Source: Eledone cirrhosa (lineage: Eukaryota). Taken from it: 64,000 bases of DNA. This document shows positions 9,049 to 62,000 of this stretch, in pieces. Position numbers and translations under genes: made by a program. The stretch spans positions 63,178,001-63,242,000 of the forward strand of contig OZ024743.1 of the NCBI GenBank assembly GCA_964016885.1, read 5' to 3'. The notes beneath the pieces were generated by a model. The model was not told the origin of the DNA. It worked only from the letters and a program-made list of their open reading frames with translations, and made no database searches. The stretch's first letter is position 1. Every line of letters begins with the position of its first letter.

Positions 9049-9187
9049 CACTATATATATATACATTACACTATATATATATATATATATTACACTATAT
9101 ATATATATATGTACATTACACTATATATATATATATTACACTATATATATATACATTACACTATATATATATATATAGTGTAATATA
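8057..9187. repeat. 1.1-kb (C/T)ATTACAC-(TA)n compound microsatellite ending in one inverted unit
   Basis: Dozens of TTACAC units in TA runs. TAGTGTAATATA at ~9176-9187 is the reverse complement of the unit. Confidence 0.95.
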
Positions 9188-9189
9188 AG

Positions 9190-13222: not shown

Positions 13223-13713
<491 letters not shown>

Positions 13714-32805: not shown

Positions 32806-33143
32806 TCATCATCATTTCATTTTACATCCACTTTTTCCCTGCTTGCAAGGGTGGGACGGGAACCGATTCTGGCTTGATTTCTACAGCTGGATGCCCTTCC
32901 TAACACCAACCTCATTTACAGCGAGTGCTGGGTGCTTTTTTTCCGTGGCACCTCCACGACCACTTTGCAGTGGAATGATAGGGACCCCAGTCCTATCATC
33001 TCATTTTTACAGCTGAGTAAACTGGAGCAATGTGAAATAAAGTATCTTGCTCAAGGAAACAACACATCACCCGGTCTGAGAATTGAACTCACAACCTTTA
33101 TATTGCAAGGCCGATGCTCTAACCACTAAGCCATGTGCCTCCA
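32806..33143 (-). mobile_element. Second copy of the tRNA-headed RTE-tailed SINE
   Basis: Near-identical reverse complement of 13368-13713. Confidence 0.9.
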
Positions 33144-34163: not shown

Positions 34164-34645
34164 AATAATAATAATGAAGAAGAATAACAACAACAGCAAC
34201 AACAATGACAGCAATGATCATGATCATATAGCCTATATACAGTCTTGCTTACTTACACCCTAGTGAAGAACTACAAGCTACCACTATTGTCAATTCACAA
34301 TGAACTTATTCACTTGGATGTCTCTTAAGATTCCTTCTTCTCAATTACTTCAGGATGTCATTCTCACATAACATTTTTTTTTTCACACAATTATCTTTTC
34401 AATATATTCCCTGTGTCTCTTGTAAGCTTCCATACTTGTTATCATTGTTGTTTACATATATTATGTAGGTTTATTTCAGTTAATATTTTTAAAAGGAGGG
34501 GAAATAATAGCTTTTAATTTTTTAGAGGGTTATAATGGGTTACAATAGGTTACAATGAATATTTAAAAAAAAAAGGAGTTGATTTATTTACATTAACAGC
34601 AGCTTCAGGTTCAATAAGTCCCATACACACAACAGTTTATAGATT

Positions 34646-35729
34646 TTTCGTTTCTGAATTTGTTTAGCAAGATTCTTTATCTGAAATCGTGTGTTGAAAC
34701 CGATATTGTTATACTTTGGGAGGGTCATGTTGCCAATAAGAAACACACGCACCAGTTGCTTTCACTTCAATTTAATTTAATATATATTTATAAATTTACA
34801 AATTTATAAATTTCTGGTTGGTTGGTTGGTTCCACAACCAGATAGTTGTTTATATATATATAGTCATAGTTCTTTCGTCACACACTCTGTGACCTCTTCA
34901 GTGACTGGGGATTTCTTTCTTCGTTTCTGTGCCTTTCCTTTCTTCTATCCTACGCCATTTTGTTTGTGTGTGGGTTGCGTGCTCAGTTTGCGCATGCGCC
35001 ACATCCGGGTGTCTGTGTGTGTTTGTGTTCATTTTTCTATTTTTCTATTTATATTTGTTTGTTTATTTATTTATTTATTGTTGGTTGGTTGTTTGTTCTA
35101 TGTGTGTGTGTGTTTTCATTTTGTCTTGTGTGTGTTTTCATTTTGTGTGTGTTTTCAATTGTAAGTTGTTTATATATGTGTGTGTGTGTTTTCATTTTGT
35201 CCTTAATTGTAAGTTGTGATGTTGCTGTTCCACTCATATTTTCTATTTAATTTTGGTTTTAATTCTTTTATGCTTACTGCCTCTGTAATTTGCCTAAACA
35301 TTGCGTCTTTCTTGTGTGTGGATTCTATTTTTATTTCTATGCTCTCTAATTTACCCCTGTGTTCTATCTTAGCATGTTGGTAGAGCACAGATGATTCTTT
35401 ACTATCTTGGAGGTCTCGCCAGTGTTCATTTATTCGTTCCCCTATACTACGAGCTGTCTCACCTATGTACACTATATTTTTGTTTCTACATTGTCCCTCA
35501 GTACATCTTATGCTATATACTACATTTCTAGTTTTACAGTTAATATGGGGGCTTATTTTACAGGTTATACATTTCTTATCTATACATGAGGGTCTTTGGA
35601 ACGGGTATGTCTTGCTAATAAGTGTTTTTACGGAGGTACCAGGTCTTTCTACTATCTTAATATTGAGATTATGTTTCTTTAGGGCCCTTCTAAATTTGTA
35701 GGCTAGTTCACCTCTAGGGGTTGTATTGA
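34646..35729 (-). mobile_element. Penelope-like element (PLE) 3' fragment, left arm of palindrome
   Basis: Open frame TPRGELAYKF...C-x4-C-x2-C-x7-C...NVVYSIRC...YIGETARSIGERINEH...EAVSI...LN (GIY-YIG endonuclease), stop at 35203, then the 3' UTR. Confidence 0.88.
34862..34906 (-). ncRNA. Minimal type-I hammerhead-ribozyme-like motif, left arm
   Basis: Exact reverse complement of 40827-40871. Confidence 0.6.
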
Positions 35730-35901
35730 TAGAGGTGAACTAGCCTACAAATTTAGAAGGGCCCTAAAGAAACATAATCTCAATATTAAGATAGTAGAAA
35801 GACCTGGTACCTCCGTAAAAACACTTATTAGCAAGACATACCCGTTCCAAAGACCCTCATGTATAGATAAGAAATGTATAACCTGTAAAATAAGCCCCCA
35901 T
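35730..35901 (+). mobile_element. PLE right arm, proximal part
   Basis: Reverse complement of 35545-35716; interrupted after ...AAGCCCCCAT by the RTE tail. Confidence 0.9.
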
Positions 35902-38900
35902 CATCATCATCATCATCACCGTTTTACGTCCGTTCTTCCACGCTAGCATGGGTTAGACGGGTTGTCCTGTTGTGGGCAGTGTCTGGTCGGCTGACCATGC
36001 CTTGCTCATACAGGAACTGATCTGGCTTGATTTCTACAGCTGGATGCCCTTCCTAACACCAACCTCATTTACAGTGAGTGCTGGGTGCTTTTTCGTGGCG
36101 CCTACACGTCCACTTTACAGTGTGGGCTGGGTGCTTTTTTGCCGTGGCACCTCCACGACCACCTTGCGGTGGGGGGGGGGGGGGGCATATTGTTTATATG
36201 CTTCAGCATGTACCCATGGGAGGTCGGGTACCCTGTATTACTGCGTGACGCCAGAAGTCACGGTCGTGTGTCATTGACTTTGAGAGGTGTAGTTGGGTAA
36301 GGTCGGCTTTTATCACCTCATCCCAAGTCATCTTGGGTCTCCCCACTCCGCGGTTTCCATCAACTTCTAGTGCTCTGCACCTTTTTATGCAGCTGTCATC
36401 CTTCATACGCATCACATGTCCATACCAGCGTAACCGCCTCTCCTGCACGCAGCATTTGATTCCTCTTATGCTCAGTCTCTCTCTCAATTCATTTATGCTT
36501 TGTCGTTCACGTATATTACTGTTACACATCCATCGGAGCATGCAGGCTTCGTTTCTCTCTAATCTACGTAAGTCTTCCACCTTCAGCGCCCAGGTCTCAC
36601 TACCATGCAACATCGCTGTTCGGATACACGCATCATACAGTCTGCCTTTCATTCTGAGGGAGAAGCCTTTTGCAGCTAGCAGTGGTAGTAGTTCCCTAAA
36701 CTTCTTCCATCCCGTTCTTACCCTAGTTATTGTACTTTCTGAGCACCCACCTCCGTTGCTAATTCGGTCACCTAGGTAGCAGAAGCTGTCTACTGTTTCT
36801 ACAGGGCCCTCCCAGAGATTGGTGGTACTTGTTTCCTGTGGCTGTTTGCTTGCTGTTTCAGCACAGCTGCTGCATGTGAATCCTACATTCTTAATTAAGC
36901 TTCCTGAGATCCCGCTACATCTCTTGTGTACCCATTGTTTGCATTTGGGGCAAAGAATGGAGTTCCTACCTACACCTTTCCTACATACTGAGCAAGGCCA
37001 TTTCCCTGAGGGGATCTGGGTTCTGTTTTCTCGTCTACTTATAAGGACCTTAGTCTTTGTCATGTTGACTTTGAGGCCCTTTCTCTCTAGTCCCTGCTTC
37101 CAGGTTTGGAATTTATTCTCTAGTTCTACCATAGATTCAGCTATGAGTGCGAGGTCATCAGCATACAGGAGTTCCCATGGGCATCCGGTCTTAAACTCCT
37201 CCGTTATTGCCTGCAGGACTATGATGAACAGGAGAGGGCTAAGAACAGAGCCCTGGTGGACCCCAACCTGTACGCTAAATTCCTCGCTATACTCATTGCC
37301 AATCCTAACTTTGCTGACTGCTCCCCTATACATGGCTTGTACCGCTTTCACAAGCCATTCATCTACTCCTAGTTTTCTAAGAGCCCACCAGATTACTGCA
37401 CGTGGAACTCTGTCAAAGGCTTTCTCAAGGTCGACAAATGCCAAGTAGAGTGGCTTACTTTTAGCTAGGTACTTTTCCTGTAATTGCCTCACAAGGAAGA
37501 GCGCATCAGTGGTGCCTTTCCCTGGAACAAACCCAAATTGCATCTCGTCTATATTCACCCGGTCCCTAATCAGCTGTGCTATAACTCTTTCTGTTACTTT
37601 CATGACCTGGTCCATCAACTTTATACCTCTATAGTTTCCTCTATCTAGTGCATCGCCTTTACCTTTGTAGCAGTTGACAATGATGCTACTGCACCAATCT
37701 TTTGGTATGGCCCCCTCTAGTATTACCTGGTTAACGATACGTGTGGTTATAGTGTGACCTACAGACCCAGATGCCTTCAGCATCTCGGCAGCTATACCCG
37801 ATGGACCGGTTGCCTTCCCTATCTTCATATCTCTGATTGCCTTACTTACTACGCTGCCGCTGACTTGTACTGCTGGTCCCTCTATAGGGTCTACGTGGGG
37901 TAGGGTCTCTTCTTCCCATGCATTCTCCTCATTTAGTAATCTATCATAATGACTCTTCCATGCATCTTTCTTCTCAGCACTTGTGAGGGCAAGCTCACCT
38001 TTATCATTCCGGATACACTTCTCTCCAATGACATCACAACTATCTCTGACACACTGCCTCGCAATCTTGAATACCTCCTGTTTCTGGTCCTCACGTTGTA
38101 AAACATGCTTGAATTTTCTATCCTCTGCTTCCCTCCTAGCTAAGTATACTTGTCGCCTAGCTTCCCTCTTGGTCTCTATGTAATGTACCCTGCTCCCCCC
38201 GTTCTTCCATTCTTTCCATGCCTGTCTCTTGGCCTTGACTGCTTCATCTACCTTATTGTTCCACCACCAAGTCACTCTCCTCCTGCTTGAGGTCTTACTC
38301 CAGCCACAAACCTCATCCGTCGCCTCTAGTAAGTTATTTTTTAGGAACTCCCAGTTCTCTTCTACGTTAAATGTCTCTATCTGTTCTTCTTTACTGTCGT
38401 AGGCGTTGAGTAAAATATCTTTAAATCTGTTACTGGTTGAGGGGACTTTCAGCTTCCAGATCTTTCTTCTCCAGGTTGGCCTCTGTTTCAGGGCTCGTCT
38501 AGTTCTGACCGTGAGGTCGCTGACAACTAAGCTATGTTGGGATGTACATTCCTCACTAGGGAAGGCTTTTGTGTTTACGACCGTCCATCTGTCACGTCCT
38601 CTGATGAGAATAAAATCTAACTGACTAGAGTGCTCCCCTGATCTATAGGTGATCAGGTGGTTGTCGGGTTTTTTAAAGTTTGTGTTACATATCGACATGT
38701 CATTGGCGTCGCAGAATTCTAGAAGTCTGAATCCTTCCTCATTCCTTGTGCCAACTCCATGGCCTCCATGTACTCTATTGAAGCCGTCGCAGTGTTTACC
38801 TACGTGTCCGTTAAAATCTCCTGCAATGATTAGGAAGTCCTTGTCGTCTGTTAGAGCAGTAGTGTGTATTAGGGACTCGTAAAACCTATCCTTAAGTTCG

Positions 38901-40188
38901 TCTGGCAGCCCCGATTGGGGTGCGTAAGCTGATATTATTGTGGTAATTGTCTTATTCAGGACTAGTCTGAGTTTAATGATTCTTGCATTTACCCTGTACA
39001 CTGAGATTACTTTATCTACCCACTTGTCAGCTAATAGTATACCTACACCACCCATCCCATCGTCATTTCCCACCCAGAAAAATTTGTAGCACTGGCTTTT
39101 TCCTACAAGGACTCTAGCAGACCCTCCTCTCCATCTAGTCTCTTGCACACAGCATACATCAACTTCCTTTCGCTCTAGCATTTCTACGATTTCTCCTGCT
39201 CTTCCTTTCATTGAGCCTACATTGATGGTACCAACTCGGAGTTTTGGGCATTTGTCGACACTCGTAGGGGAGGGTCTCTGGGTTGGCGCTTCACGTGGGT
39301 GCTTGGTAGCTCGCAGATTCATATTTCATCTATTGATTCAGAGTTGCTCGTGTATTCCCAGCTCATCCATCCATAACGGTGGGAAAATTGAGGGCTAGAA
39401 GGACAGTGGTGGTGGGGTAATGGCAGGGTGTGTTGGGATGCGCCAGAGGAGGAGAGAGTTAGTTAGGCAGGTAGTAGTAGCAGCAGCAGTGGAAATGGCA
39501 TGCTAGGTTTGATTGGTCGAATAGACTATGGTGGTGTGTGGGGGTGGGGGGGAGGGAAATTGTGAGGTAGGAACTGAGGGTCGCATGGTAAATATCCAAG
39601 TTAATACTACATCAGTAAAATTAACAATAATAACGTCATGAAAAAAGCTACTAAGAGAAACCCTCGAAAATTTATCGCTAATACAGCAGGGAAAATTTAA
39701 CGCTAATACAGCAGGGAACATCATAATATTAACGACATGAAAAAGCTACTAAGAGAAACCCTCGAAAATTTATCGCTAATACAGCAGGGAAAATTTAACG
39801 CTAATACAGCAGGGAACATCATAATATTAACGACAATATGTAGGCTAAAATACCTTCGTAGATTAGGTGGATGGCTGGCTGGGAAAATTTGAATCAGCTC
39901 TACTGGTACATTTTAGCAGAGAAGAATGGCAAAGTGTCTTATCTCTTCAATATTTTCAGATTGAATGAATTAGGTTAAAGACAGGGTAGTAAGCCTTAAA
40001 GAAGTGCATAGAGGGGGGGGGGGGTAGGAACTGAGGGTCGCATGGTAAATAACTGAGAGAGATACAATAGGATTAGAATACCGCATGGTAAATATCCAAG
40101 TTAATAAGTTAATACTACATCAGTAAAATTAACAATAATAACGTCATGAAAAAAGCTACTATTAACATATTAACTGTACTATTAACAT
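35902..40188 (-). mobile_element. Apparently full-length RTE-clade LINE (second family) inserted in the PLE arm
   Basis: (CAT)n tail at 35902, intact ORF, ~0.85 kb upstream region. The arm offsets (coordinate sums 71446 vs 75733) give a 4287-bp insertion. Confidence 0.93.
36203..39322 (-). CDS. Intact RTE ORF, 1039 aa: APE endonuclease + reverse transcriptase with internal PHD-type zinc finger
   Basis: ATG to stop with no interruption; motifs [79 protein letters not shown]. Confidence 0.95.
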   Translation of the reverse strand: MNLRATKHPREAPTQRPSPTSVDKCPKLRVGTINVGSMKGRAGEIVEMLERKEVDVCCVQETRWRGGSARVLVGKSQCYKFFWVGNDDGMGGVGILLADKWVDKVISVYRVNARIIKLRLVLNKTITTIISAYAPQSGLPDELKDRFYESLIHTTALTDDKDFLIIAGDFNGHVGKHCDGFNRVHGGHGVGTRNEEGFRLLEFCDANDMSICNTNFKKPDNHLITYRSGEHSSQLDFILIRGRDRWTVVNTKAFPSEECTSQHSLVVSDLTVRTRRALKQRPTWRRKIWKLKVPSTSNRFKDILLNAYDSKEEQIETFNVEENWEFLKNNLLEATDEVCGWSKTSSRRRVTWWWNNKVDEAVKAKRQAWKEWKNGGSRVHYIETKREARRQVYLARREAEDRKFKHVLQREDQKQEVFKIARQCVRDSCDVIGEKCIRNDKGELALTSAEKKDAWKSHYDRLLNEENAWEEETLPHVDPIEGPAVQVSGSVVSKAIRDMKIGKATGPSGIAAEMLKASGSVGHTITTRIVNQVILEGAIPKDWCSSIIVNCYKGKGDALDRGNYRGIKLMDQVMKVTERVIAQLIRDRVNIDEMQFGFVPGKGTTDALFLVRQLQEKYLAKSKPLYLAFVDLEKAFDRVPRAVIWWALRKLGVDEWLVKAVQAMYRGAVSKVRIGNEYSEEFSVQVGVHQGSVLSPLLFIIVLQAITEEFKTGCPWELLYADDLALIAESMVELENKFQTWKQGLERKGLKVNMTKTKVLISRRENRTQIPSGKWPCSVCRKGVGRNSILCPKCKQWVHKRCSGISGSLIKNVGFTCSSCAETASKQPQETSTTNLWEGPVETVDSFCYLGDRISNGGGCSESTITRVRTGWKKFRELLPLLAAKGFSLRMKGRLYDACIRTAMLHGSETWALKVEDLRRLERNEACMLRWMCNSNIRERQSINELRERLSIRGIKCCVQERRLRWYGHVMRMKDDSCIKRCRALEVDGNRGVGRPKMTWDEVIKADLTQLHLSKSMTHDRDFWRHAVIQGTRPPMGTC

Positions 40189-41026
40189 ATTAACTGTAAA
40201 ACTAGAAATGTAGTATATAGCATAAGATGTACTGAGGGACAATGTAGAAACAAAAATATAGTGTACATAGGTGAGACAGCTCGTAGTATAGGGGAACGAA
40301 TAAATGAACACTGGCGAGACCTCCAAGATAGTAAAGAATCATCTGTGCTCTACCAACATGCTAAGATAGAACACAGGGGTAAATTAGAGAGCATAGAAAT
40401 AAAAATAGAATCCACACACAAGAAAGACGCAATGTTTAGGCAAATTACAGAGGCAGTAAGCATAAAAGAATTAAAACCAAAATTAAATAGAAAATATGAG
40501 TGGAACAGCAACATCACAACTTACAATTAAGGACAAAATGAAAACACACACACACATATATAAACAACTTACAATTGAAAACACACACAAAATGAAAACA
40601 CACACAAGACAAAATGAAAACACACACACACATAGAACAAACAACCAACCAACAATAAATAAATAAATAAACAAACAAATATAAATAGAAAAATAGAAAA
40701 ATGAACACAAACACACACAGACACCCGGATGTGGCGCATGCGCAAACTGAGCACGCAACCCACACACAAACAAAATGGCGTAGGATAGAAGAAAGGAAAG
40801 GCACAGAAACGAAGAAAGAAATCCCCAGTCACTGAAGAGGTCACAGAGTGTGTGACGAAAGAACTATGACTATATATATATAAACAACTATCTGGTTGTG
40901 GAACCAACCAACCAACCAGAAATTTATAAATTTGTAAATTTATAAATATATATTAAATTAAATTGAAGTGAAAGCAACTGGTGCGTGTGTTTCTTATTGG
41001 CAACATGACCCTCCCAAAGTATAACA
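40186..41026 (+). mobile_element. PLE right arm, distal part (GIY-YIG domain + 3' UTR)
   Basis: Reverse complement of 34707-35547; ORF 40261..40530 is identical to 35203..35472. Confidence 0.9.
40827..40871 (+). ncRNA. Minimal type-I hammerhead-ribozyme-like motif, right arm
   Basis: AGTCA (stem I), CTGAAGA, extra G, GTCACA-gagtg-TGTGAC (stem II), GAAA, G-AA-C-T-A, TGACT (stem I'). Confidence 0.6.
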
Positions 41027-41047
41027 GTTTATAGATTATAAATTGTA

Positions 41048-44013: not shown

Positions 44014-47000
44014 ATGCTGTCATGATTTGGATTGGTTGTTATGGTTGAATGCTGTCATGGTTTGGATTGGTTGTTATGGTTGAATGCTGTCATGATTTGG
44101 ATTGGTTGTTATGGTTGAATGCTGTCATGGTTTGGATTGGTTGTTATGGTTGAATGCTGTCATGATTGGAATTGGTTGTTATGGTTGAATGCTGTCATGG
44201 TTTGGATTGGTTGTTATGGTTGAATGCTGTCATGGTTTGGATTGGTTGTTACGGTTGAATGTTGTCATGGTTTGGATTGGTTGTTATGGTTGAATGCTGT
44301 CATGGTTTGGATTGGTTGTTATGGTTGAATGCTGTCATGGTTTGGATTGGTTGTTATGGTTGAATGCTGTCATGATTGGGATTGGTTGTTATGGTTGAAT
44401 GCTGTCATGGTTTGGATTGGTTGTTATGGTTGAATGCTGTCATGGTTTGGACTGGTTGAATGCTGTCATGGTTCGGACTGGTTGTTATGGTTGAATGGTG
44501 TCATGGTTTGGATTGGTTGTTATGGTTGAATGCTGTCATGGTTTGGACTGGTTGAATGCTGTCATGGTTCGGACTGGTTGTTATGGTTGAATGCTGTCAT
44601 GGTTTGGATTGGTTGTTATGGTTGAATGCTGTCATGGTTTGGACTGGTTGTTATGGTTGAATGCTGTCATGGTTTGGACTGGTTGAATGCTGTCATGGTT
44701 CGGACTGGTTGTTATGGTTGAATGCTATCATGGTTTGGACTGGTTGTTATGGTTGAATGCTGTCATGGTTTGGACTGGTTGTTATGGTTGAATGCTGTCA
44801 TGGTTTGGATTGGTTGTTATGGTTGAATGCTGTCATGGTTTGGATTGGTTGTTATGGTTGAATGCTGTCATGGTTTGGATTGGTTGTTATGGTTGAATGC
44901 TGTCATAGTTTGGATTGGTTGTTATGGTTGAATGCTGTCATGGTTTGGATTGGTTGTTATGGTTGAATGCTGTCATGGTTTGGATTGGTTGTTATGGTTG
45001 AATGCTGTCATGGTTTGGATTGGTTGTTATGGTTGAATGCTGTCATGGTTTGGATTGGTTGTTATGGTTGAATGCTGTCATGGTTTGGATTGGTTGTTAT
45101 GGTTGAATGCTGTCATGGTTTGGATTGGTTGTTATGGTTGAATGCTGTCATGGTTTGGATTGGTTGTTATGGTTGAATGCTGTCATGGTTTGGATTGGTT
45201 GTTATGGTTGAATGCTGTCATGGTTTGGATTGGTTGTTATGGTTGAATGCTGTCAGTTTGGATTGGTTGTTATGGTTGAATGCTGTCATAGTTTGGATTG
45301 GTTGTTATGGTTGAATGCTGTCATGGTTTGGATTGGTTGTTATGGTTGAATGCTGTCATGGTTTGGATTGGTTGTTATGGTTGAATGCTGTCATGGTTTG
45401 GATTGGTTGTTATGGTTGAATGCTGTCATAGTTTGGATTGGTTGTTATGGTTGAATGCTGTCATAGTTTGGATTGGTTGTTATGGTTGAATGCTGTCATA
45501 GTTTGGACTGGTTGTTATGGTTGAATGCTATCATGATTGGGATTGGTTGTTATGGTTGAATGCTAATATAGTTTGGATTGGTTGTTATGGTTGAATGCTA
45601 TCATGATTGGGATTGGTTGTTATGGTTGAATGCTAATATAGTTTGGATTAGTTGTTATGGTTGAATGCTATCATGGTTTGGACTGGTTGTTATGGTTGAA
45701 TGCTGTCATGATTGGGATTGGTTGTTATGGTTGAATGCTGTCATGGTTTGGATTGGTTGTTATGGTTGAATGCTGTCATAGTTTGGATTGGTTGTTATGG
45801 TTGAATGCTGTCATAGTTTGGATTGGTTGTTATGGTTGAATGCTGTCATAGTTTGGATTGGTTGTTATGGTTGAATGCTGTCATAGTTTGGACTGGTTGT
45901 TATGGTTGAATGCTGTCATAGTTTGGACTGGTTGTTATGGTTGAATGCTGTCATGGTTTGGATTGGTTGTTATGGTTGAATGCTGTCATGGTTTGGATTG
46001 GTTGTTATGGTTGAATGCTGTCATAGTTTGGATTGGTTGTTATGGTTGAATGCTATCATGATTGGGATTGGTTGTTATGGTTGAATGCTAATATAGTTTG
46101 GATTGGTTGTTATGGTTGAATGCTGTCATGGTTTGGACTGGTTGTTATGGTTGAATGCTGTCATAGTTTGGATTGGTTGTTATGGTTGAATGCTATCATG
46201 ATTGGGACTGGTTGTTATGGTTGAATGCTGTCATAGTTTGGATTGGTTGTTATGGTTGAATGCTATCATGATTGGGATTGGTTGTTATGGTTGAATGCTA
46301 ATATAGTTTGGATTGGTTGTTATGGTTGAATGCTGTCATGGTTTGGCCTGGTTGTTATGGTTGAATGCTGTCATGATTGGGATTGGTTGTTATGGTTGAA
46401 TGCTGTCATAGTTTGGATTGGTTGTTATGGTTGAATGCTGTCATGGTTTGGATTGGTTGTTATGGTTGAATGCTGTCATAGTTTGGATTGGTTGTTATGG
46501 TTGAATGCTGTCATAGTTTGGATTGGTTGTTATGGTTGAATGCTGTCATAGTTTGGATTGGTTGTTATGGTTGAATGCTGTCATGGTTTGGACTGGTTGT
46601 TATGGTTGAATGCTGTCATGATTGGGATTGGTTGTTATGGTTGAATGCTGTCATGATTGGGATTGGTTGTTATGGTTGAATGCTGTCATGATTGGGATTG
46701 GTTGTTATGGTTGAATGCTGTCATGATTGGGATTGGTTGTTATGGTTGAATGCTGTCATGATTTGGATTAGTTGTTATGGTTGAATGCTGTCATGGTTTG
46801 GATTGGTTATTATGGTTGAATGCTGTCATGGTTTGGATTGGTTGTTATGGTTGAATGCTGTCATAGTTTGGATTGGTTGTTATGGTTGAATGCTGTCATG
46901 GTTTGGATTGGTTGTTATGATTGAATGCTGTCATAGTTTGGATTGGTTGTTATGGTTGAATGCTGTCATGGTTTGGACTGGTTGTTCTGGTTGAATGCTG

Positions 47001-50000
47001 TCATAGTTTGTGATTGGTTGTTATGGTTGAATGCTATCATGATTGTGATTGGTTGTTATGGTTGAATGCTGTCATGATTGGGATTGGTTGTTATGGTTGA
47101 ATGCTGTCATGATTGGGATTGGTTGTTATGGTTGAATGCTGTCATGATTGGGATTGGTTGTTATGGTTGAATGCTGTCATGATTGGGATTGGTTGTTATG
47201 GTTGAATGCTGTCATGATTGGGATTGGTTGTTATGGTTGAATGCTGTCATGATTTGGATTGGTTGTTATGGTTGAATGCTGTCATGGTTTGGATTGGTTG
47301 TTATGGTTGAATGCTGTCATGGTTTGGATTGGTTGTTATGGTTGAATGCTGTCATAGTTTGGATTGGTTGTTATGGTTGAATGCTGTCATGGTTTGGATT
47401 GGTTGTTATGGTTGAATGCTGTTATAGTTTGGATTGGTTGTTATGGTTGAATGCTATCATGATTGGGATTGGTTGTTATGGTTGAATGCTAATATAGTTT
47501 GGATTGGTTGTTATGGTTGAATGCTGTCATGGTTTGGACTGGTTGTTATGGTTGAATGCTGTCATGGTTTGAACTGGTTGTTATGGTTGAATGCTGTCAT
47601 AGTTTGGATTGGTTGTTATGGTTGAATGCTGTCATAGTTTGGATTGGTTGTTATGGTTGAATGCTGTCATAGTTTGGATTGGTTGTTATGGTTGAATGCT
47701 GTCATAGTTTGGACTGGTTGTTATGGTTGAATGCTGTCATAGTTTGGACTGGTTGTTATGGTTGAATGCTGTCATGGTTTGGATTGGTTGTTATGGTTGA
47801 ATGCTGTCATGGTTTGGATTGGTTGTTATGGTTGAATGCTGTCATAGTTTGGATTGGTTGTTATGGTTGAATGCTATCATGATTGGGATTGGTTGTTATG
47901 GTTGAATGCTAATATAGTTTGGATTGGTTGTTATGGTTGAATGCTGTCATGGTTTGGACTGGTTGTTATGGTTGAATGCTGTCATAGTTTGGATTGGTTG
48001 TTATGGTTGAATGCTATCATGATTGGGACTGGTTGTTACGGTTGAATGCTGTCATAGTTTGGATTGGTTGTTATGGTTGAATGCTATCATGATTGGGATT
48101 GGTTGTTATGGTTGAATGCTAATATAGTTTGGATTGGTTGTTATGGTTGAATGCTGTCATGGTTTGGACTGGTTGTTATGGTTGAATGCTGTCATGATTG
48201 GGATTGGTTGTTATGGTTGAATGCTGTCATAGTTTGGATTGGTTGTTATGGTTGAATGCTGTCATGGTTTGGATTGGTTGTTATGGTTGAATGCTGTCAT
48301 AGTTTGGATTGGTTGTTATGGTTCAATGCTGTCATGGTTTGGACTGGTTGTTATGGTTGAATGCTGTCATAGTTTGGATTGGTTGTTATGGTTGAATACT
48401 GTCATAGTTTGGATTGGTTGTTATGGTTGAATGCTGTCATAGTTTGGATTGGTTGTTATGGTTGAATGCTGTCATGGTTTGGACTGGTTGTTATGGTTGA
48501 ATGCTGTCATAGTTTGGATTGGTTGTTATGGTTGAATGCTATCATGATTGGGATTGGTTGTTATGGTTGAATGCTGTCATGATTGGGATTGGTTGTTATG
48601 GTTGAATGCTGTCATGATTGGGATTGGTTGTTATGGTTGAATGCTGTCATGATTGGGATTGGTTGTTATGGTTGAATGCTGTCATGATTTGGATTAGTTG
48701 TTATGGTTGAATGCTGTCATGGTTTGGATTGGTTATTATGGTTGAATGCTGTCATGGTTTGGATTGGTTGTTATGGTTGAATGCTGTCATAGTTTGGATT
48801 GGTTGTTATGGTTGAATGCTGTCATGGTTTGGATTGGTTGTTATGATTGAATGCTGTCATAGTTTGGATTGGTTGTTATGGTTGAATGCTGTCATGGTTT
48901 GGACTGGTTGTTCTGGTTGAATGCTGTCATAGTTTGGATTGGTTGTTATGGTTGAATGCTATCATGATTGTGATTGGTTGTTATGGTTGAATGCTGTCAT
49001 GATTGGGATTGGTTGTTATGGTTGAATGCTGTCATGATTGGGATTGGTTGTTATGGTTGAATGCTAATATAGTTTGGATTAGTTGTTATGGTTGAATGCT
49101 ATCATGGTTTGGACTGGTTGTTATGGTTGAATGCTGTCATGATTGGGATTGGTTGTTATGGTTGAATGCTGTCATGGTTTGGATTGGTTGTTATGGTTGA
49201 ATGCTGTCATAGTTTGGATTGGTTGTTATGGTTGAATGCTGTCATAGTTTGGATTGGTTGTTATGGTTGAATGCTGTCATAGTTTGGATTGGTTGTTATG
49301 GTTGAATGCTGTCATAGTTTGGATTGGTTGTTATGGTTGAATGCTGTCATAGTTTGGACTGGTTGTTATGGTTGAATGCTGTCATAGTTTGGACTGGTTG
49401 TTATGGTTGAATGCTGTCATGGTTTGGATTGGTTGTTATGGTTGAATGCTGTCATGGTTTGGATTGGTTGTTATGGTTGAATGCTGTCATAGTTTGGATT
49501 GGTTGTTATGGTTGAATGCTATCATGATTGGGATTGGTTGTTATGGTTGAATGCTAATATAGTTTGGATTGGTTGTTATGGTTGAATGCTGTCATTGTTT
49601 GGACTGGTTGTTATGGTTGAATGCTGTCATAGTTTGGATTGGTTGTTATGGTTGAATGCTATCATGATTGGGACTGGTTGTTATGGTTGAATGCTGTCAT
49701 AGTTTGGATTGGTTGTTATGGTTGAATGCTATCATGATTGGGATTGGTTGTTATGGTTGAATGCTAATATAGTTTGGATTGGTTGTTATGGTTGAATGCT
49801 GTCATGGTTTGGACTGGTTGTTATGGTTGAATGCTGTCATGATTGGGATTGGTTGTTATGGTTGAATGCTGTCATAGTTTGGATTGGTTGTTATGGTTGA
49901 ATGCTGTCATGGTTTGGATTGGTTGTTATGGTTGAATGCTGTCATAGTTTGGATTGGTTGTTATGGTTGAATGCTGTCATGGTTTGGACTGGTTGTTATG

Positions 50001-53000
50001 GTTGAATGCTGTCATAGTTTGGATTGGTTGTTATGGTTGAATGCTGTCATAGTTTGGATTGGTTGTTATGGTTGAATGCTGTCATGGTTTGGACTGGTTG
50101 TTATGGTTGAATGCTGTCATAGTTTGGATTGGTTGTTATGGTTGAATGCTATCATGATTGGGATTGGTTGTTATGGTTGAATGCTGTCATGATTGGGATT
50201 GGTTGTTATGGTTGAATGCTGTCATGATTGGGATTGGTTGTTATGGTTGAATGCTGTCATGATTGGGATTGGTTGTTATGGTTGAATGCTGTCATGATTT
50301 GGATTAGTTGTTATGGTTGAATGCTGTCATGGTTTGGATTGGTTATTATGGTTGAATGCTGTCATGGTTTGGATTGGTTGTTATGGTTGAATGCTGTCAT
50401 AGTTTGGATTGGTTGTTATGGTTGAATGCTGTCATGGTTTGGATTGGTTGTTATGATTGAATGCTGTCATAGTTTGGATTGGTTGTTATGGTTGAATGCT
50501 GTCATGGTTTGGACTGGTTGTTCTGGTTGAATGCTGTCATAGTTTGGATTGGTTGTTATGGTTGAATGCTATCATGATTGTGATTGGTTGTTATGGTTGA
50601 ATGCTGTCATGATTGGGATTGGTTGTTATGGTTGAATGCTGTCATGATTGGGATTGGTTGTTATGGTTGAATGCTGTCATGATTGGGATTGGTTGTTATG
50701 GTTGAATGCTGTCATAGTTTGGATTGGTTGTTATGGTTGAATGCTGTTATAGTTTGGATTGGTTGTTATGGTTGAATGCTATCATGATTGTGATTGGTTG
50801 TTATGGTTGAATGCTGTCATGATTGGGATTGGTTGTTATGGTTGAATGCTGTCATGATTGGGATTGGTTGTTATGGTTGAATGCTGTCATGATTGGGATT
50901 GGTTGTTATGGTTGAATGCTGTCATGGTTTGGATTGGTTGTTATGGTTGAATGCTGTCATGGTTTGGATTGGTTGTTATGGTTGAATGCTGTCATAGTTT
51001 GGATTGGTTGTTATGGTTGAATGCTGTCATGGTTTGGATTGGTTGTTATGGTTGAATGCTGTTATAGTTTGGATTGGTTGTTATGGTTGAATGCTATCAT
51101 GATTGGGATTGGTTGTTATGGTTGAATGCTAATATAGTTTGGATTGGTTGTTATGGTTGAATGCTGTCATGGTTTGGACTGGTTGTTATGGTTGAATGCT
51201 GTCATGGTTTGAACTGGTTGTTATGGTTGAATGCTGTCATAGTTTGGATTGGTTGTTATGGTTGAATGCTGTCATAGTTTGGATTGGTTGTTATGGTTGA
51301 ATGCTGTCATAGTTTGGATTGGTTGTTATGGTTGAATGCTGTCATAGTTTGGACTGGTTGTTATGGTTGAATGCTGTCATAGTTTGGACTGGTTGTTATG
51401 GTTGAATGCTGTCATGGTTTGGATTGGTTGTTATGGTTGAATGCTGTCATGGTTTGGATTGGTTGTTATGGTTGAATGCTGTCATAGTTTGGATTGGTTG
51501 TTATGGTTGAATGCTATCATGATTGGGATTGGTTGTTACGGTTGAATGCTAATATAGTTTGGATTGGTTGTTATGGTTGAATGCTGTCATGGTTTGGACT
51601 GGTTGTTATGGTTGAATGCTGTCATAGTTTGGATTGGTTGTTATGGTTGAATGCTATCATGATTGGGACTGGTTGTTATGGTTGAATGCTGTCATAGTTT
51701 GGATTGGTTGTTATGGTTGAATGCTATCATGATTGGGATTGGTTGTTATGGTTGAATGCTAATATAGTTTGGATTGGTTGTTATGGTTGAATGCTGTCAT
51801 GGTTTGGACTGGTTGTTATGGTTGAATGCTGTCATGATTGGGATTGGTTGTTATGGTTGAATGCTGTCATAGTTTGGATTGGTTGTTATGGTTGAATGCT
51901 GTCATGGTTTGGATTGGTTGTTATGGTTGAATGCTGTCATAGTTTGGATTGGTTGTTATGGTTGAATGCTGTCATGGTTTGGACTGGTTGTTATGGTTGA
52001 ATGCTGTCATAGTTTGGATTGGTTGTTATGGTTGAATGCTGTCATAGTTTGGATTGGTTGTTATGGTTGAATGCTGTCATGGTTTGGACTGGTTGTTATG
52101 GTTGAATGCTGTCATAGTTTGGATTGGTTGTTATGGTTGAATGCTATCATGATTGGGATTGGTTGTTATGGTTGAATGCTGTCATGATTGGGATTGGTTG
52201 TTATGGTTGAATGCTGTCATGATTGGGATTGGTTGTTATGGTTGAATGCTGTCATGATTGGGATTGGTTGTTATGGTTGAATGCTGTCATGATTTGGATT
52301 AGTTGTTATGGTTGAATGCTGTCATGGTTTGGATTGGTTATTATGGTTGAATGCTGTCATGGTTTGGATTGGTTGTTATGGTTGAATGCTGTCATAGTTT
52401 GGATTGGTTGTTATGGTTGAATGCTGTCATGGTTTGGATTGGTTGTTATGATTGAATGCTGTCATAGTTTGGATTGGTTGTTATGGTTGAATGCTGTCAT
52501 GGTTTGGACTGGTTGTTCTGGTTGAATGCTGTCATAGTTTGGATTGGTTGTTATGGTTGAATGCTATCATGATTGTGATTGGTTGTTATGGTTGAATGCT
52601 GTCATGATTGGGATTGGTTGTTATGGTTGAATGCTGTCATGATTGGGATTGGTTGTTATGGTTGAATGCTGTCATGATTGGGATTGGTTGTTATGGTTGA
52701 ATGCTGTCATGATTGGGATTGGTTGTTATGGTTGAATGCTGTCATGATTGGGATTGGTTGTTATGGTTGAATGCTGTCATGATTTGGATTAGTTGTTATG
52801 GTTGAATGCTGTCATGGTTTGGATTGGTTGTTATGGTTGAATGCTGTCATGGTTTGGATTGGTTGTTATGGTTGAATGCTGTCATAGTTTGGATTGGTTG
52901 TTATGGTTGAATGCTGTCATGGTTTGGATTGGTTGTTATGGTTGAATGCTGTTATAGTTTGGATTGGTTGTTATGGTTGAATGCTATCATGATTGGGATT

Positions 53001-56000
53001 GGTTGTTATGGTTGAATGCTAATATAGTTTGGATTGGTTGTTATGGTTGAATGCTGTCATGGTTTGGACTGGTTGTTATGGTTGAATGCTGTCATGGTTT
53101 GAACTGGTTGTTATGGTTGAATGCTGTCATAGTTTGGATTGGTTGTTATGGTTGAATGCTGTCATGGTTTGGATTGGTTGTTATGATTGAATGCTGTCAT
53201 AGTTTGGATTGGTTGTTATGGTTGAATGCTGTCATGGTTTGGACTGGTTGTTCTGGTTGAATGCTGTCATAGTTTGGATTGGTTGTTATGGTTGAATGCT
53301 ATCATGATTGTGATTGGTTGTTATGGTTGAATGCTGTCATGATTGGGATTGGTTGTTATGGTTGAATGCTGTCATGATTGGGATTGGTTGTTATGGTTGA
53401 ATGCTAATATAGTTTGGATTAGTTGTTATGGTTGAATGCTATCATGGTTTGGACTGGTTGTTATGGTTGAATGCTGTCATGATTGGGATTGGTTGTTATG
53501 GTTGAATGCTGTCATGGTTTGGATTGGTTGTTATGGTTGAATGCTGTCATAGTTTGGATTGGTTGTTATGGTTGAATGCTGTCATAGTTTGGATTGGTTG
53601 TTATGGTTGAATGCTGTCATAGTTTGGATTGGTTGTTATGGTTGAATGCTGTCATAGTTTGGATTGGTTGTTATGGTTGAATGCTGTCATAGTTTGGACT
53701 GGTTGTTATGGTTGAATGCTGTCATAGTTTGGACTGGTTGTTATGGTTGAATGCTGTCATGGTTTGGATTGGTTGTTATGGTTGAATGCTGTCATGGTTT
53801 GGATTGGTTGTTATGGTTGAATGCTGTCATAGTTTGGATTGGTTGTTATGGTTGAATGCTATCATGATTGGGATTGGTTGTTATGGTTGAATGCTAATAT
53901 AGTTTGGATTGGTTGTTATGGTTGAATGCTGTCATTGTTTGGACTGGTTGTTATGGTTGAATGCTGTCATAGTTTGGATTGGTTGTTATGGTTGAATGCT
54001 ATCATGATTGGGACTGGTTGTTATGGTTGAATGCTGTCATAGTTTGGATTGGTTGTTATGGTTGAATGCTATCATGATTGGGATTGGTTGTTATGGTTGA
54101 ATGCTAATATAGTTTGGATTGGTTGTTATGGTTGAATGCTGTCATGGTTTGGACTGGTTGTTATGGTTGAATGCTGTCATGATTGGGATTGGTTGTTATG
54201 GTTGAATGCTGTCATAGTTTGGATTGGTTGTTATGGTTGAATGCTGTCATGGTTTGGATTGGTTGTTATGGTTGAATGCTGTCATAGTTTGGATTGGTTG
54301 TTATGGTTGAATGCTGTCATGGTTTGGACTGGTTGTTATGGTTGAATGCTGTCATAGTTTGGATTGGTTGTTATGGTTGAATGCTGTCATAGTTTGGATT
54401 GGTTGTTATGGTTGAATGCTGTCATGGTTTGGACTGGTTGTTATGGTTGAATGCTGTCATAGTTTGGATTGGTTGTTATGGTTGAATGCTATCATGATTG
54501 GGATTGGTTGTTATGGTTGAATGCTGTCATGATTGGGATTGGTTGTTATGGTTGAATGCTGTCATGATTGGGATTGGTTGTTATGGTTGAATGCTGTCAT
54601 GATTGGGATTGGTTGTTATGGTTGAATGCTGTCATGATTTGGATTAGTTGTTATGGTTGAATGCTGTCATGGTTTGGATTGGTTATTATGGTTGAATGCT
54701 GTCATGGTTTGGATTGGTTGTTATGGTTGAATGCTGTCATAGTTTGGATTGGTTGTTATGGTTGAATGCTGTCATGGTTTGGATTGGTTGTTATGATTGA
54801 ATGCTGTCATAGTTTGGATTGGTTGTTATGGTTGAATGCTGTCATGGTTTGGACTGGTTGTTCTGGTTGAATGCTGTCATAGTTTGGATTGGTTGTTATG
54901 GTTGAATGCTATCATGATTGTGATTGGTTGTTATGGTTGAATGCTGTCATGATTGGGATTGGTTGTTATGGTTGAATGCTGTCATGATTGGGATTGGTTG
55001 TTATGGTTGAATGCTGTCATGATTGGGATTGGTTGTTATGGTTGAATGCTGTCATAGTTTGGATTGGTTGTTATGGTTGAATGCTGTTATAGTTTGGATT
55101 GGTTGTTATGGTTGAATGCTATCATGATTGTGATTGGTTGTTATGGTTGAATGCTGTCATGATTGGGATTGGTTGTTATGGTTGAATGCTGTCATGATTG
55201 GGATTGGTTGTTATGGTTGAATGCTGTCATGATTGGGATTGGTTGTTATGGTTGAATGCTGTCATGGTTTGGATTGGTTGTTATGGTTGAATGCTGTCAT
55301 GGTTTGGATTGGTTGTTATGGTTGAATGCTGTCATAGTTTGGATTGGTTGTTATGGTTGAATGCTGTCATGGTTTGGATTGGTTGTTATGGTTGAATGCT
55401 GTTATAGTTTGGATTGGTTGTTATGGTTGAATGCTATCATGATTGGGATTGGTTGTTATGGTTGAATGCTAATATAGTTTGGATTGGTTGTTATGGTTGA
55501 ATGCTGTCATGGTTTGGACTGGTTGTTATGGTTGAATGCTGTCATGGTTTGAACTGGTTGTTATGGTTGAATGCTGTCATAGTTTGGATTGGTTGTTATG
55601 GTTGAATGCTGTCATAGTTTGGATTGGTTGTTATGGTTGAATGCTGTCATAGTTTGGATTGGTTGTTATGGTTGAATGCTGTCATAGTTTGGACTGGTTG
55701 TTATGGTTGAATGCTGTCATAGTTTGGACTGGTTGTTATGGTTGAATGCTGTCATGGTTTGGATTGGTTGTTATGGTTGAATGCTGTCATGGTTTGGATT
55801 GGTTGTTATGGTTGAATGCTGTCATAGTTTGGATTGGTTGTTATGGTTGAATGCTATCATGATTGGGATTGGTTGTTACGGTTGAATGCTAATATAGTTT
55901 GGATTGGTTGTTATGGTTGAATGCTGTCATGGTTTGGACTGGTTGTTATGGTTGAATGCTGTCATAGTTTGGATTGGTTGTTATGGTTGAATGCTATCAT

Positions 56001-57805
56001 GATTGGGACTGGTTGTTATGGTTGAATGCTGTCATAGTTTGGATTGGTTGTTATGGTTGAATGCTATCATGATTGGGATTGGTTGTTATGGTTGAATGCT
56101 AATATAGTTTGGATTGGTTGTTATGGTTGAATGCTGTCATGGTTTGGACTGGTTGTTATGGTTGAATGCTGTCATGATTGGGATTGGTTGTTATGGTTGA
56201 ATGCTGTCATAGTTTGGATTGGTTGTTATGGTTGAATGCTGTCATGGTTTGGATTGGTTGTTATGGTTGAATGCTGTCATAGTTTGGATTGGTTGTTATG
56301 GTTGAATGCTGTCATGGTTTGGACTGGTTGTTATGGTTGAATGCTGTCATAGTTTGGATTGGTTGTTATGGTTGAATGCTGTCATAGTTTGGATTGGTTG
56401 TTATGGTTGAATGCTGTCATGGTTTGGACTGGTTGTTATGGTTGAATGCTGTCATAGTTTGGATTGGTTGTTATGGTTGAATGCTATCATGATTGGGATT
56501 GGTTGTTATGGTTGAATGCTGTCATGATTGGGATTGGTTGTTATGGTTGAATGCTGTCATGATTGGGATTGGTTGTTATGGTTGAATGCTGTCATGATTG
56601 GGATTGGTTGTTATGGTTGAATGCTGTCATGATTTGGATTAGTTGTTATGGTTGAATGCTGTCATGGTTTGGATTGGTTATTATGGTTGAATGCTGTCAT
56701 GGTTTGGATTGGTTGTTATGGTTGAATGCTGTCATAGTTTGGATTGGTTGTTATGGTTGAATGCTGTCATGGTTTGGATTGGTTGTTATGATTGAATGCT
56801 GTCATAGTTTGGATTGGTTGTTATGGTTGAATGCTGTCATGGTTTGGACTGGTTGTTCTGGTTGAATGCTGTCATAGTTTGGATTGGTTGTTATGGTTGA
56901 ATGCTATCATGATTGTGATTGGTTGTTATGGTTGAATGCTGTCATGATTGGGATTGGTTGTTATGGTTGAATGCTGTCATGATTGGGATTGGTTGTTATG
57001 GTTGAATGCTGTCATGATTGGGATTGGTTGTTATGGTTGAATGCTGTCATGATTGGGATTGGTTGTTATGGTTGAATGCTGTCATGATTGGGATTGGTTG
57101 TTATGGTTGAATGCTGTCATGATTTGGATTAGTTGTTATGGTTGAATGCTGTCATGGTTTGGATTGGTTGTTATGGTTGAATGCTGTCATGGTTTGGATT
57201 GGTTGTTATGGTTGAATGCTGTCATAGTTTGGATTGGTTGTTATGGTTGAATGCTGTCATGGTTTGGATTGGTTGTTATGGTTGAATGCTGTTATAGTTT
57301 GGATTGGTTGTTATGGTTGAATGCTATCATGATTGGGATTGGTTGTTATGGTTGAATGCTAATATAGTTTGGATTGGTTGTTATGGTTGAATGCTGTCAT
57401 GGTTTGGACTGGTTGTTATGGTTGAATGCTGTCATGGTTTGAACTGGTTGTTATGGTTGAATGCTGTCATAGTTTGGATTGGTTGTTATGGTTGAATGCT
57501 GTCATGATTGGGATTGGTTGTTATGGTTGAATGCTATCATGATTGGGATTGGTTGTTATGGTTGAATGCTGTCATGATTGGGATTGGTTGTTATGGTTGA
57601 ATGCTGTCATGGTGTGCACTGGTTGTTATGGTTGAATGCTGTCATGATTTGGATTGGTTGTTATCATGATTGGGATTGGTTATGTTTGAATTCTGTCATG
57701 GTTTGGATTGGTTGTTATGGTTGAATGGTGTCATGATTGGGATTGGTTGTCATGTTTGGGATTGGTTGTTATGGTTGAATGCTGTCATAGTTTGGATTGG
57801 TTGTC
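44014..57805. repeat. 35-bp satellite, ~390 copies, with higher-order structure
   Basis: Unit GGTTGTTATGGTTGAATGCTGTCATGGTTTGGATT (GTCAT at 47281 and 47316); rare variants recur 4340 bp apart. Confidence 0.98.
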
Positions 57806-59064: not shown

Positions 59065-62000
59065 CGTCTACAACATGGTGCCACGCTAAAAACACTGGTG
59101 GTGATGTAACCATAAATTCACTAATCCTCGATATGAGTGTTTAAATGTAGAACCTAAACAGTTCAAATGACGGTGAGAAGCAGACTGGAACGCCATGTGA
59201 AAGACTCACCCAGCAAGTGCTCCCTAGCCCAGCAGCAGGGACCTGGCTGTCATCCAAATACTGCTGGTGTTGGAGGAAGAAGAAGGAATGGTACAAGAAC
59301 CAACTGGACGAGAGAATTGAATAGAACTGTCATGTTCAGAGCTGAAGAGTAACCCCATGGAAAAAGGCTATAAGAAAAGGATGCATAACATCTGGAATGA
59401 GATTGGTCTATTTAAATTAGGTGAACAAAACTTGGCCGGACAGGCTCGGGTAATAAGAACTAATGGATGGATAAGCAATTTGGAACTGGAGGAACTCAGC
59501 AGAGAGATTAAGTTGGAAATGGGGAGTGGAGTATATCAGGCAAATGAGCCAGTGGGAAATGAAGGTGAAGAAGTTGAGAGACCTGAGGAAGCATCTGAAG
59601 CAGACAATGATCTGAATGCTGAAATAAATAACATCTGGAACAAAGATACGGCCATTGAGGAAATGAATGCTGACGGGCTAGGGCAAGATTTGGTTGATAT
59701 CCTGAACTTAGTGGTAGATGAAATGAAACCTATGAACCTAAGATTTGTAGACAGGAAAAAGTTAAAAGAAACAACAGCTAAGGTAAATAGGTCATCCCAT
59801 ACCTTGAGGCAAGGAACCTTCACCAATGCAACAATATCCTCAAATCAACCGCAAATGTGGTGAAGAAATTACTTGGTATAAAAACAAGAGGAAACAACAA
59901 ACAAGAAAGATCAGAACCTTGATGGACGAAACGACTGAGTGGTCAAATCAAGGAAATGAGAAAAGACATTGGAAGCTTGAGTCTTTACTGAATGGGACAT
60001 TACAAAACATAGACACTAAAGATAGATTGAAAATAAAATACAAACCTAGGGGAAAAGAGCTAAATGTTATCATAGAGGAACTGAAGCAACACATTGTAGC
60101 AAAAAGTGCAAAGATTAGGCGGTATGAGAACAGAGTTAGTCAGTATAGACAGAACCACATGTTTGACAACAACCAGATGTTGTTTGAACAGCTTGAAGGG
60201 AAAGAAAGAGGTAATGACGTGATCCCTGAGGTTGAACAGACTAAGACTTTCTGGAGAGGAATATGGGAGCAGGATGTTGAACATAATAGTCAGGCAGTGT
60301 GGATTAAGGCAGGTCAAAAGGGGATTAGTGAACAAGCACACCAACAACCTGATTTGAGTACCACAGTTGAAACTCTTAAAGGGCAGGCCAAAAACTAACC
60401 AACTGGAAATCACTAGGCCCAGATAGTGTGCAAGGGTATTGGATTAAAAATATAACATCCCTTCACCCAAAACTGGCAACCATGTTCAATGACTGCTTGA
60501 TGTCGGGTGAGTGGTTGACAAAAGGTACCACAGTTCTGGTAATGAAAGACCGAATCAAGGGTAATGATGTTACCAACTATAGACCTATCACATGTCTGTC
60601 CGTAATGTGGAAACTGTTAACAAGCATTGTGTCTGAGGAAATCTACTATCACCTCCACATAAACAACTTGTTACCGGACGAACAGAAAGGATGCCGAAAG
60701 AAGTCTTGTGGTACAAAAGACCAATTACTTATTGATAAGATGGTAATGAGGAATTGCAAGAGGAGGCACATTGGTCTTGCCATGGGATGGATAGATTACA
60801 AAAAGGCATTCAACATGGTACCTCATTCTTGAATAACCAAAAGCCTAGAGATCTTCAAGGTGGCAGAAAACATCAGACAGCTATTGAGTAAAAGTATGAA
60901 GTCCTGGGAAACAGAGTTAACATCAGGTGGAGAATCCTTGGGAGGCATGAAGATCAAGAGGTATCTTCCAGGGAGATGGTCTATCCCCTTTGTTGTTTGT
61001 CCTTGCCCTGATACCCCTGTCCATCATATTGCAAAAAGTGAAAGCAGGATACAAGTTGGGAAGAGGAGAGCTTACCATCAACCACCTCTTCTTCATGGAC
61101 GATCTTAAACTCTTTGGGAAGAGTGAGAAGGAGTTGGATGTACTTGTTGACACTGTCCGTATTTTCAGCAATGATATATGTATGGAATTTGGTGTTAATA
61201 AGTGTGGAGTCCTAGTGATGAAGAGGGGTAAATTGAGCAGAAGCAACGGAATCCAGGTACCAACAGGTGAGATGATAAAGGAAATTGACACTGAAGAGGG
61301 ATACAAATATTTAGTTCTTCTGGAGGAAAATGACATGAACAAAACAAATGAAGGAATTGATAAGATCTGAATACATAAGGAGAGTAAGGAACATACTAAA
61401 CTCACATCTAAATAGTAGGAATGTCATAAGTGCAGTAAATTCCCGAGCTGTGTCTATTATTAGGTACAGTGCGGAGGGCGTTGGATTGGCAGAGGGTCGG
61501 ACGACATGTTGTGCAACATAGAGTTACAGCCCTTTATGATCTGAGTTCAAATCCTGCTGAGGTTAACTTTGCCTCTCATCCTTACAGGGGTCAATAAAAT
61601 AAAGTACCAGTCACGCACTGGGGTTGATTTAATCAACTTTCCTCTGCCCCCAAATTGTTGGCCTTGTGCCTATATAAGAAACCATTATTAGGTACAGTGC
61701 GGGAATTCTGAAATGGAATGTTGCTGAACAAAAAGAAATGGATAGGAAGACTAGGAAGCTAATGACTATCAACATGTTCCACAAGAGGAGTAATGTTGAT
61801 AGACTCTACTTAAAGAGATCTGAAGGTGGAAGAGGTCTTAGCATAGAGGACTGTTCAGATGGAGAAAAACAGCCTGCACAAATATGTGGCTGACAATAGG
61901 GAGCCAATGCTCAAAATTGTACTGAACGAGAAGACAATAGACCAGGGGATGTCCAAGGAGGAAATAACAACAAGGAGGAAGAGAACCTTCATGAAAAATC

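Follow-up and report, generated by a model that had tools for sequence, protein, structure and literature searches.

Structure of the palindromic insertion

A palindromic insertion of a Penelope-like element (PLE) was analyzed in a 64,000-nt stretch of the Eledone cirrhosa genome (GCA_964016885.1, contig OZ024743.1, positions 63,178,001 to 63,242,000 of the forward strand; hereafter the window). It lies at 34631-41037 and has two head-to-head arms, the right one interrupted by a second retrotransposon. The arms are named after the two outer termini of the family, +86 and +26, which are positions in the open reading frame (ORF), and are flanked by target-site duplications (TSDs). The features are as follows.

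34631..34645, + strand: TSD, left copy; the target is not (TA)n, which is unusual for this family
34646..34706, - strand: 61-nt tail corresponding to nt +83..+23 of the following unit's ORF and lying between family termini +86 and +26
34707..35716, - strand: left (+86) arm, part common to the right arm
34862..34906, - strand: hammerhead-like motif found by eye (mirror at 40827-40871); stems I and II folded, z -1.11
35203..35730, - strand: C-terminal PLE ORF fragment with CX4CxxC linker and GIY-YIG endonuclease (PF01541, E 6.5e-05)
35717..35729, - strand: 13-nt loop, element coding sequence about -1008..-996, left arm only
35730..35901, + strand: inner segment of the right (+26) arm, from element position -995
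40189..41026, + strand: outer segment of the right (+26) arm, up to ORF +22; AACA common with the TSD
41023..41037, + strand: TSD, right copy, an exact repeat of the left copy

The reverse complement of 34707-35716 was compared with the right arm in the window. There were 0/172 mismatches with 35730-35901 and 0/838 with 40189-41026, giving a total arm of 1010 nt; a sequence-only reading had judged the arms identical by eye, and its coordinates were exact. The left arm contains the endonuclease C-terminus, the 3' untranslated region and pseudo-long terminal repeat (pLTR), and the first 22 nt of the next ORF. The loop that this reading had placed at 35717-35729 (GGGGTTGTATTGA, 13 nt) was found there, and can be described further as ordinary element coding sequence that continues the left arm. 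The arm overlap at the centre is only 1 nt (T35730), and the TGTTCA upstream is present in 85/89 copies. The additional 61 nt (34646-34706), likewise noted before, occur on the left arm only and are the family tail, because the family termini are fixed at +86 and +26.

The sequence AACAGTTTATAGATT occurs exactly twice in the window, starting at 34631 and 41023, and the repeat cannot be extended. The right arm ends in AACA, and these 4 nt are at the same time the start of the right TSD copy. The proposed 15-bp TSD stands as an exact repeat; its length is 15 bp if AACA was paired and 11 bp if the AACA match is due to chance. One TSD surrounds the whole unit and the arms have 0 differences. The locus is one insertion, as had been suggested: two 5'-truncated PLE copies head-to-head within one TSD. 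Taken singly, it is an instance of an already known structure, distinctive mainly for its non-(TA)n target.

The hammerhead-like core CUGAAGAG...GAAA lies in the pLTR; stems I and II were predicted (z -1.11), and no Rfam hammerhead match was found. A sub-threshold match to mir-298 on the palindrome centre, the sole Rfam result, was rejected.

Identity of the PLE family

The GIY-YIG domain (PF01541) in the arm and a full-length family ORF confirmed the Penelope-like identity. The natural tandem unit is 4286 nt (4.29 kb) with an ORF of 1267 aa. The ORF at locus L033 (6147-9947, - strand) carried, as read by eye, DKSG, YVDD, and terminal endonuclease (EN) motifs. A Pfam search with the full 1267-aa protein gave no match; the C-terminal fragment alone gave PF01541. 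By eye, the endonuclease linker C-IDKK-C-IT-C fits CX2-5CxxC, and VVY-SIR-C-TEGQ-C-RNKNIV-YIG with a downstream His fits the CCHH motif, in which GIY and YIG enclose two Cys. The family also shows the hallmarks of EN+ PLEs: partial tandems (pLTR), inverted truncated copies, and a tail. The linker, the CCHH residues, and (TA)n targeting suggest a Neptune/Nematis type; the listed reverse transcriptase (RT) matches included no clade-labelled reference. The closest relative among these matches was a hypothetical protein of Octopus vulgaris (70% identical).

An O. vulgaris dynein regulatory complex subunit 6-like protein (P0114) was 78% identical over 21% of the PLE RT-EN; it is possibly a gene model including element sequence. 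N-terminal to the RT, at about aa 245-470, the ORF also contains a long insert rich in Asn, Thr, and His, which recalls the N-rich inserts described for Adineta Penelopes (PMC3846280).

All 40 scored matches of a 530-nt query were 100% identical and lay mainly in head-to-head clusters. A 36-mer had 214 exact matches in the genome, and a pattern for ends at ORF +26 had 12,274. Judged by these sequence matches, the PLE family is very young. Giant single insertions of 14.2 and 20.9 kb (L033 with L034; L165-L167) carried tandem full-length units on one or both arms.

Fixed termini, target, and TSD

A total of 200 regions were fetched, a small part of the family and mainly from four contigs (C1-C4). 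They comprised 55 clusters picked by internal sequence only, 86 regions that were the first +26 ends listed on C1, 14 candidate non-TA ends, and 40 regions in which a +86 end was followed by G or T. Automatic parsing yielded 103 two-ended rows, plus 62 anchors for which no partner was detected; some of these anchors are internal variants and not ends. In curation, 11 complex or duplicate rows were dropped, 6 short-armed events were added by eye, and 10 had their coordinates or class assigned by hand, leaving 98 events.

Both outer ends were resolved in 41/55 internally picked clusters, and all 41 paired +86 with +26. The +26 partner was seen in 29/40 +86-anchored loci. Each terminus finishes with AATAT and passes into (TA)n, so that ATAT is common to element and target at each end. 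TA flanks were present in 92/93 rows, the window copy being the exception; the +26-anchored part is biased to A/T by the search pattern. The TSD was 14 bp in 14/19 marker-bearing rows of 131 (13/18 without a duplicate), a length that includes 4 nt common with the element at each end; the other lengths were 9, 12, 16, 32, and 34. The 15-bp TSD of the window copy is this 14-bp stagger shifted by one. The 14 candidate matches for other non-(TA) +26 ends were mostly internal variants and gave no second clean TSD. RNA folding around both start sites gave no significant structure (z -0.50). With (TA)n targets, simple capture by microhomology would be expected to use the longer TA run near -130; the constant end at +26 therefore weighs against a single cDNA.

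Probable template sharing between the arms

The last 800 nt of the arms were identical in 17/29 young loci, compared with 4.4% of 2051 between-locus pairs, and were within one difference in 28/29, compared with 21%. Variants unseen in the other fetched loci were common to both arms, even at direct joints (L036, L099, L140, and L165). The arms of L032 had 8 differences, 7 of them with both alleles seen in other loci, and those of L033 had one site of this type. The alleles suggest that L032 combines two source haplotypes in one insertion. Where one arm is a tandem, the short arm showed a mixed picture and no signal of favouring the tandem's terminal unit.

These data bear on whether the arms arose by two separate insertions, or by recombination of copies after insertion, at one site. 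Copies of the family, which has more than 12,000 ends, are nested in its own targets, and the two haplotypes of L032 would be expected from such a history. The strict +86/+26 pairing and a within-locus identity far above that between loci point the other way, and for the window copy the single TSD and the 0 arm differences largely refute it. This explanation is highly improbable.

Joints at the palindrome centres

Among the 98 events, 73 had direct joints between unrelated inner ends, 20 had inner ends within 20 nt of each other, and 5 were partial hairpins. The direct joints had a 0-4 nt overlap in 52/72 scored cases and filler in the others. Filler reiterated the junction sequence in L142 and L164, and also in the near-symmetric L132 and L159; such filler resembles polymerase-theta end-joining. 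The +26 arm held sequence absent from the +86 arm in about 64/98 events (the printed 65 miscounts the window copy because of its second retrotransposon), and the arms had no overlap in 11/98. A tendency to longer +26 arms (47/68 direct joints) is not claimed because anchoring biases the count. Recurrent minimal insertions of about 45-53 nt (L067, L069, L109, L121, and L125) consisted of 11-20 nt of the +86 arm and 33-38 nt of the +26 arm, mostly with a 3-nt overlap.

The survey of family copies for hairpin centres, a check named in the sequence-only reading, found near-symmetric centres in 20/95 events against 4.9 expected by permutation (p at most 5e-5). The +26-anchored set had 10/56 (3.9 expected; p 0.003), and the long set had 10/39 (1.05 expected; 9/38 excluding the window copy; p at most 5e-5). 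The permutation for the +86-anchored set (9/29, p 0.0007) was not relied on, six loci being mis-parsed (L195, L197, L204, L211, L223, and L227); by eye, the 28 distinct resolved loci of this set included 5 full hairpins and 2 partial ones. Clean loops, where seen, were 0-15 nt. Of the 20 near-symmetric events, 11 had the loop in the +86 arm and 7 had it in the +26 arm; in the other 2 it belonged to neither.

In the partial hairpin of L047, the arm runs to -2404, folds back for 27 nt, and jumps to the other arm at -2277; others were present in L048, L086, L108, and L128. The most plausible origin of the partial hairpins is that one cDNA end folded back and was then joined. The enrichment of near-symmetric centres, together with the short fold-back pieces, makes snap-back at the joint probable in this family, and fold-back may have acted at the window joint. 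For full hairpins, the data fit fold-back and annealing as well as co-termination. Eight inner ends clustered at -995..-1021, possibly a pause site; selection required reaching -997. In short copies, further hot spots of inner ends and hairpin centres were seen at about -228..-245 and -57..-82, the latter in an AT-rich natural palindrome.

The sequence-only reading had proposed snap-back of one self-primed cDNA. Extended to the family, a cDNA begun at +86 would fold back, copy itself to +26, and join the other target end, and the asymmetric and non-overlapping copies would be due to later deletions, palindromes being unstable. The window copy alone is compatible with this model and with twin priming. 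It fits a single cDNA fully, with loop and tail in one arm, 0 mismatches, the AACA overlap, and a second arm wholly contained in the first. The same haplotype and private variants usually found in both arms and the enriched hairpin centres also agree with it; in addition, snap-back of the cDNA end has been reported for the R2 protein (PMC11371274), and the tail has been ascribed to endonuclease resolution (PMC8557442). The 61-nt tail nevertheless counts against a self-primed single cDNA as proposed, because it lies between two initiation sites. No stem was predicted at the window loop (pairing probability 0.0002-0.0003, with an arm overlap of 1 nt). Containment of the second arm fails in about 64/98 events, and deletions would be needed in most copies, the youngest included (near-symmetric in 10/39 young long copies vs 10/56 mostly older ones). 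The two haplotypes of L032, the 50-nt minimal insertions with non-overlapping arms, and a fixed +26 end with a constant 14-bp register would not be produced. Because of the excess on the +26 arm, the non-overlapping arms, the loops owned by the +26 arm, and L032, sister copies often do not come from one folded-back cDNA. The single-cDNA explanation is thus unlikely, and what stands of the proposal is the fold-back traces at a minority of joints.

Self-priming on an antisense RNA template before or during integration, as proposed in PMC3846280, would account for the head-to-head polarity and the junction palindromes. Under this route there is no reason to expect two fixed termini of the sense RNA, paired with the target on either side, and the hairpin is missing in about three quarters of events; moreover, the first-strand cDNA would already provide the antisense strand. 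This route is very unlikely.

Proposed mechanism

Two fixed termini on opposite strands, target overlap, a 14-bp register, and variable inner ends were observed directly. The window locus is one recent insertion of a Neptune-like element, likely made by twin target-primed reverse transcription of mostly one RNA, followed by end-joining, with fold-back or co-termination giving palindromes. A protein dimer would nick both strands 14 nt apart (15 in the window copy). Each 3' overhang would pair with an AAUAU site and prime a cDNA, one from +86 and the other from +26. Both cDNAs would mostly be copied from the same RNA or source and would stop early. Host end-joining would link them through 0-4 nt of microhomology or templated filler, followed by fill-in. 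In about a fifth of events the inner ends are within 20 nt and the result is a palindrome like that of the window. Two routes could lead there: fold-back of one cDNA end, with annealing of the extended end to the other cDNA, or arrest of both RTs at one and the same break in the template. At the window locus, an RTE element later inserted into one arm. A stricter form, in which twin priming is obligate, the dimer nicks (TA)n 14 nt apart, and the overhangs pair with two AAUAU sites 60 nt apart, is one towards which we lean only slightly.

Several points weigh against twin priming. The remaining 14/55 long loci were gapped, interrupted, or one-armed, and 11/40 +86-anchored loci were not resolved. 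L157 is a one-armed copy, L061, L085, and L117 are probably one-armed, and in L112 the +26 end is paired with an end near +20. The left junction of the window copy shows no clean pairing (two extra T if ATT was paired). L032 could reflect gene conversion or a haplotype switch, and arm identity could reflect one active source per cell, gene conversion, or assembly polishing. Arm substitution rates in hairpins and direct joints did not discriminate. The anole PLE studied in vitro (Anolis Poseidon PAc) primed without homology to the cut DNA, from start sites that were the same for both strands (PMC11167929), in contrast to the ATAT overlaps and strict +86/+26 pairing of the Eledone family.

Allele state in sequencing reads

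Read contigs were obtained from three runs of one sample, possibly the source of the assembly, and from one other organism; the comparison covered the left junction. One short-read contig matched 34585-34667 with 0 differences, with only 22 nt within the element. Contigs of a second allele (T34615C) ceased to match precisely at 34645 and ran on for another 15-20 letters. These short-read contigs suggest that the insertion is heterozygous, with a filled and an empty allele at the left junction. The window insertion is recent and probably polymorphic. A search for the empty site in the assembly gave 0 matches; the assembly is one haplotype, so a match is not expected either way.

Palindromes are error-prone in assemblies, and the comparison with reads was confined to the left junction; a fold-back read chimera or mis-assembly was considered. 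The RTE and the tail are in one arm only, a TSD is present, the left junction is in a short-read contig, and the same architecture recurs genome-wide as a family rule with differing centres. An artefact is extremely improbable, in agreement with the sequence-only reading.

Secondary RTE insert and other repeats of the window

The insert in the right arm has two parts.

35902..40161, - strand: full-length RTE-type long interspersed nuclear element (LINE), secondary, with an (ATG)n 3' tail adjoining 35902
40162..40188, no strand assigned: 27-nt filler at the RTE 5' junction, repeating adjacent target sequence

The 4287-bp RTE described earlier is a secondary insert in one arm; the RTE proper ends near 40161 and the rest is filler. 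It has an intact 1040-aa EN-RT frame at 36203-39325 (PF03372 and PF00078). The RTE label is based on architecture: the single apurinic endonuclease-like (APE) plus RT ORF and the (ATG)n tail, a short tandem repeat at the 3' end. No clear TSD was found, the flanks having just CAT (3 nt) in common. The RTE family is young, 35/40 scored matches being 100% identical. The insert length of 4287, next to the PLE unit of 4286, is taken as coincidence; the RTE has its own family and ends. The family (39560-40161; L232-L240) has 5' tandem repeats in variable number, of about 100 and 410-510 nt, like promoter monomers, and its ORF has a PHD-like finger after the RT.

A second RTE family clusters at 86-9400 in both orientations, with 73-77% protein identity to the insert; fragments there are nested and inverted and 93-97% alike. 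A broken RT-encoding LINE of another family, in several frames, lies at 59321-62337. A 13.8-kb array (44014-57804) has a 35-bp unit in about 395 copies with 93% matches and a strong GC skew. Segments 13370-13694 and 32817-33140 form an inverted pair of about 325 nt, 94-95% alike and 19 kb apart.

Comparison with known systems and significance

The Neptune/Nematis EN+ PLEs likewise have a C-terminal GIY-YIG domain, a CX2-5CxxC linker, and CCHH residues, as well as partial tandems, an inverted 5'-truncated copy, a one-end tail, and a (TA)n bias (PMC8557442). The tail is 60 nt in the Eledone family and 30-40 in those elements, the inverted partner is the rule here and an option there, and the TSD is a fixed 14 bp (read from imperfect repeats) here whereas it is variable and often hidden in microsatellites there (PMC8557442). 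Adineta vaga Penelope copies are also head-to-head, with a tail, one TSD, and junction palindromes, and self-priming was proposed for them; they have 18-38-bp palindromes, 8-10-bp TSDs, and few copies (PMC3846280). The Eledone family differs in its kilobase palindromes, 0-15-nt loops, and copies enough for statistics.

In vitro, Anolis Poseidon PAc cuts and extends both strands, and reverse transcription starts at two internal sites bounding the tail; a dimer is predicted (PMC11167929). Use of both strands, two start sites, and a predicted dimer are shared with the Eledone model. The main text of that paper contains no inverted-copy model. The Eledone family differs from PAc in that AAUAU at each of the two sites is complementary to the target and each strand has its own site.

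Twin priming is reportedly a model first put forward for LINE-1. There, too, both target ends are extended by RT and joined, with an inversion within one TSD; the second end is primed at variable internal sites and non-overlapping RNA is copied (10.1101/2024.12.14.628481). In the Eledone family, the two priming sites have constant positions, 60 nt from each other, and one RNA stretch would serve twice as template. With R2 protein, the cDNA 3' end likewise primes on itself before joining; R2 uses one cDNA, whereas in the Eledone family fold-back pieces join a second cDNA (PMC11371274).

Inverted copies, tails, junction palindromes, (TA)n bias, and two start sites are already in print for PLEs. 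A search of the PLE literature, excluding most subscription papers (the 2005/2006 PLE reviews among them) and supplements, turned up no description of twin priming with one site per strand, nor of a fixed 14-bp stagger or an excess of hairpins; the supplements of PMC11167929 (Figs S1-S2) and PMC8557442 may bear on novelty. Formation of the inverted repeat and tail is stated to be open in PMC8557442, and the steps after initiation are left unvalidated in PMC11167929.

The weight of the result lies in the family-level evidence on this open mechanism and not in the window locus. The window copy is useful in that its non-repetitive target shows the duplication plainly, and it appears polymorphic. 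A young family with intact ORFs and more than 12,000 ends allows exact predictions on PLE integration: two start sites, a 14-nt stagger, ATAT pairing, one site per strand, and the distribution of joints. If twin priming is obligate, the tail, inverted pLTRs, fixed TSD, and kilobase palindromes would be products of one reaction, in which both RTs copy the same RNA stretch and no second strand is made by the element. With more than 12,000 insertions, a fifth of them near-perfect hairpins, the family would then be a genome-wide generator of palindromes.

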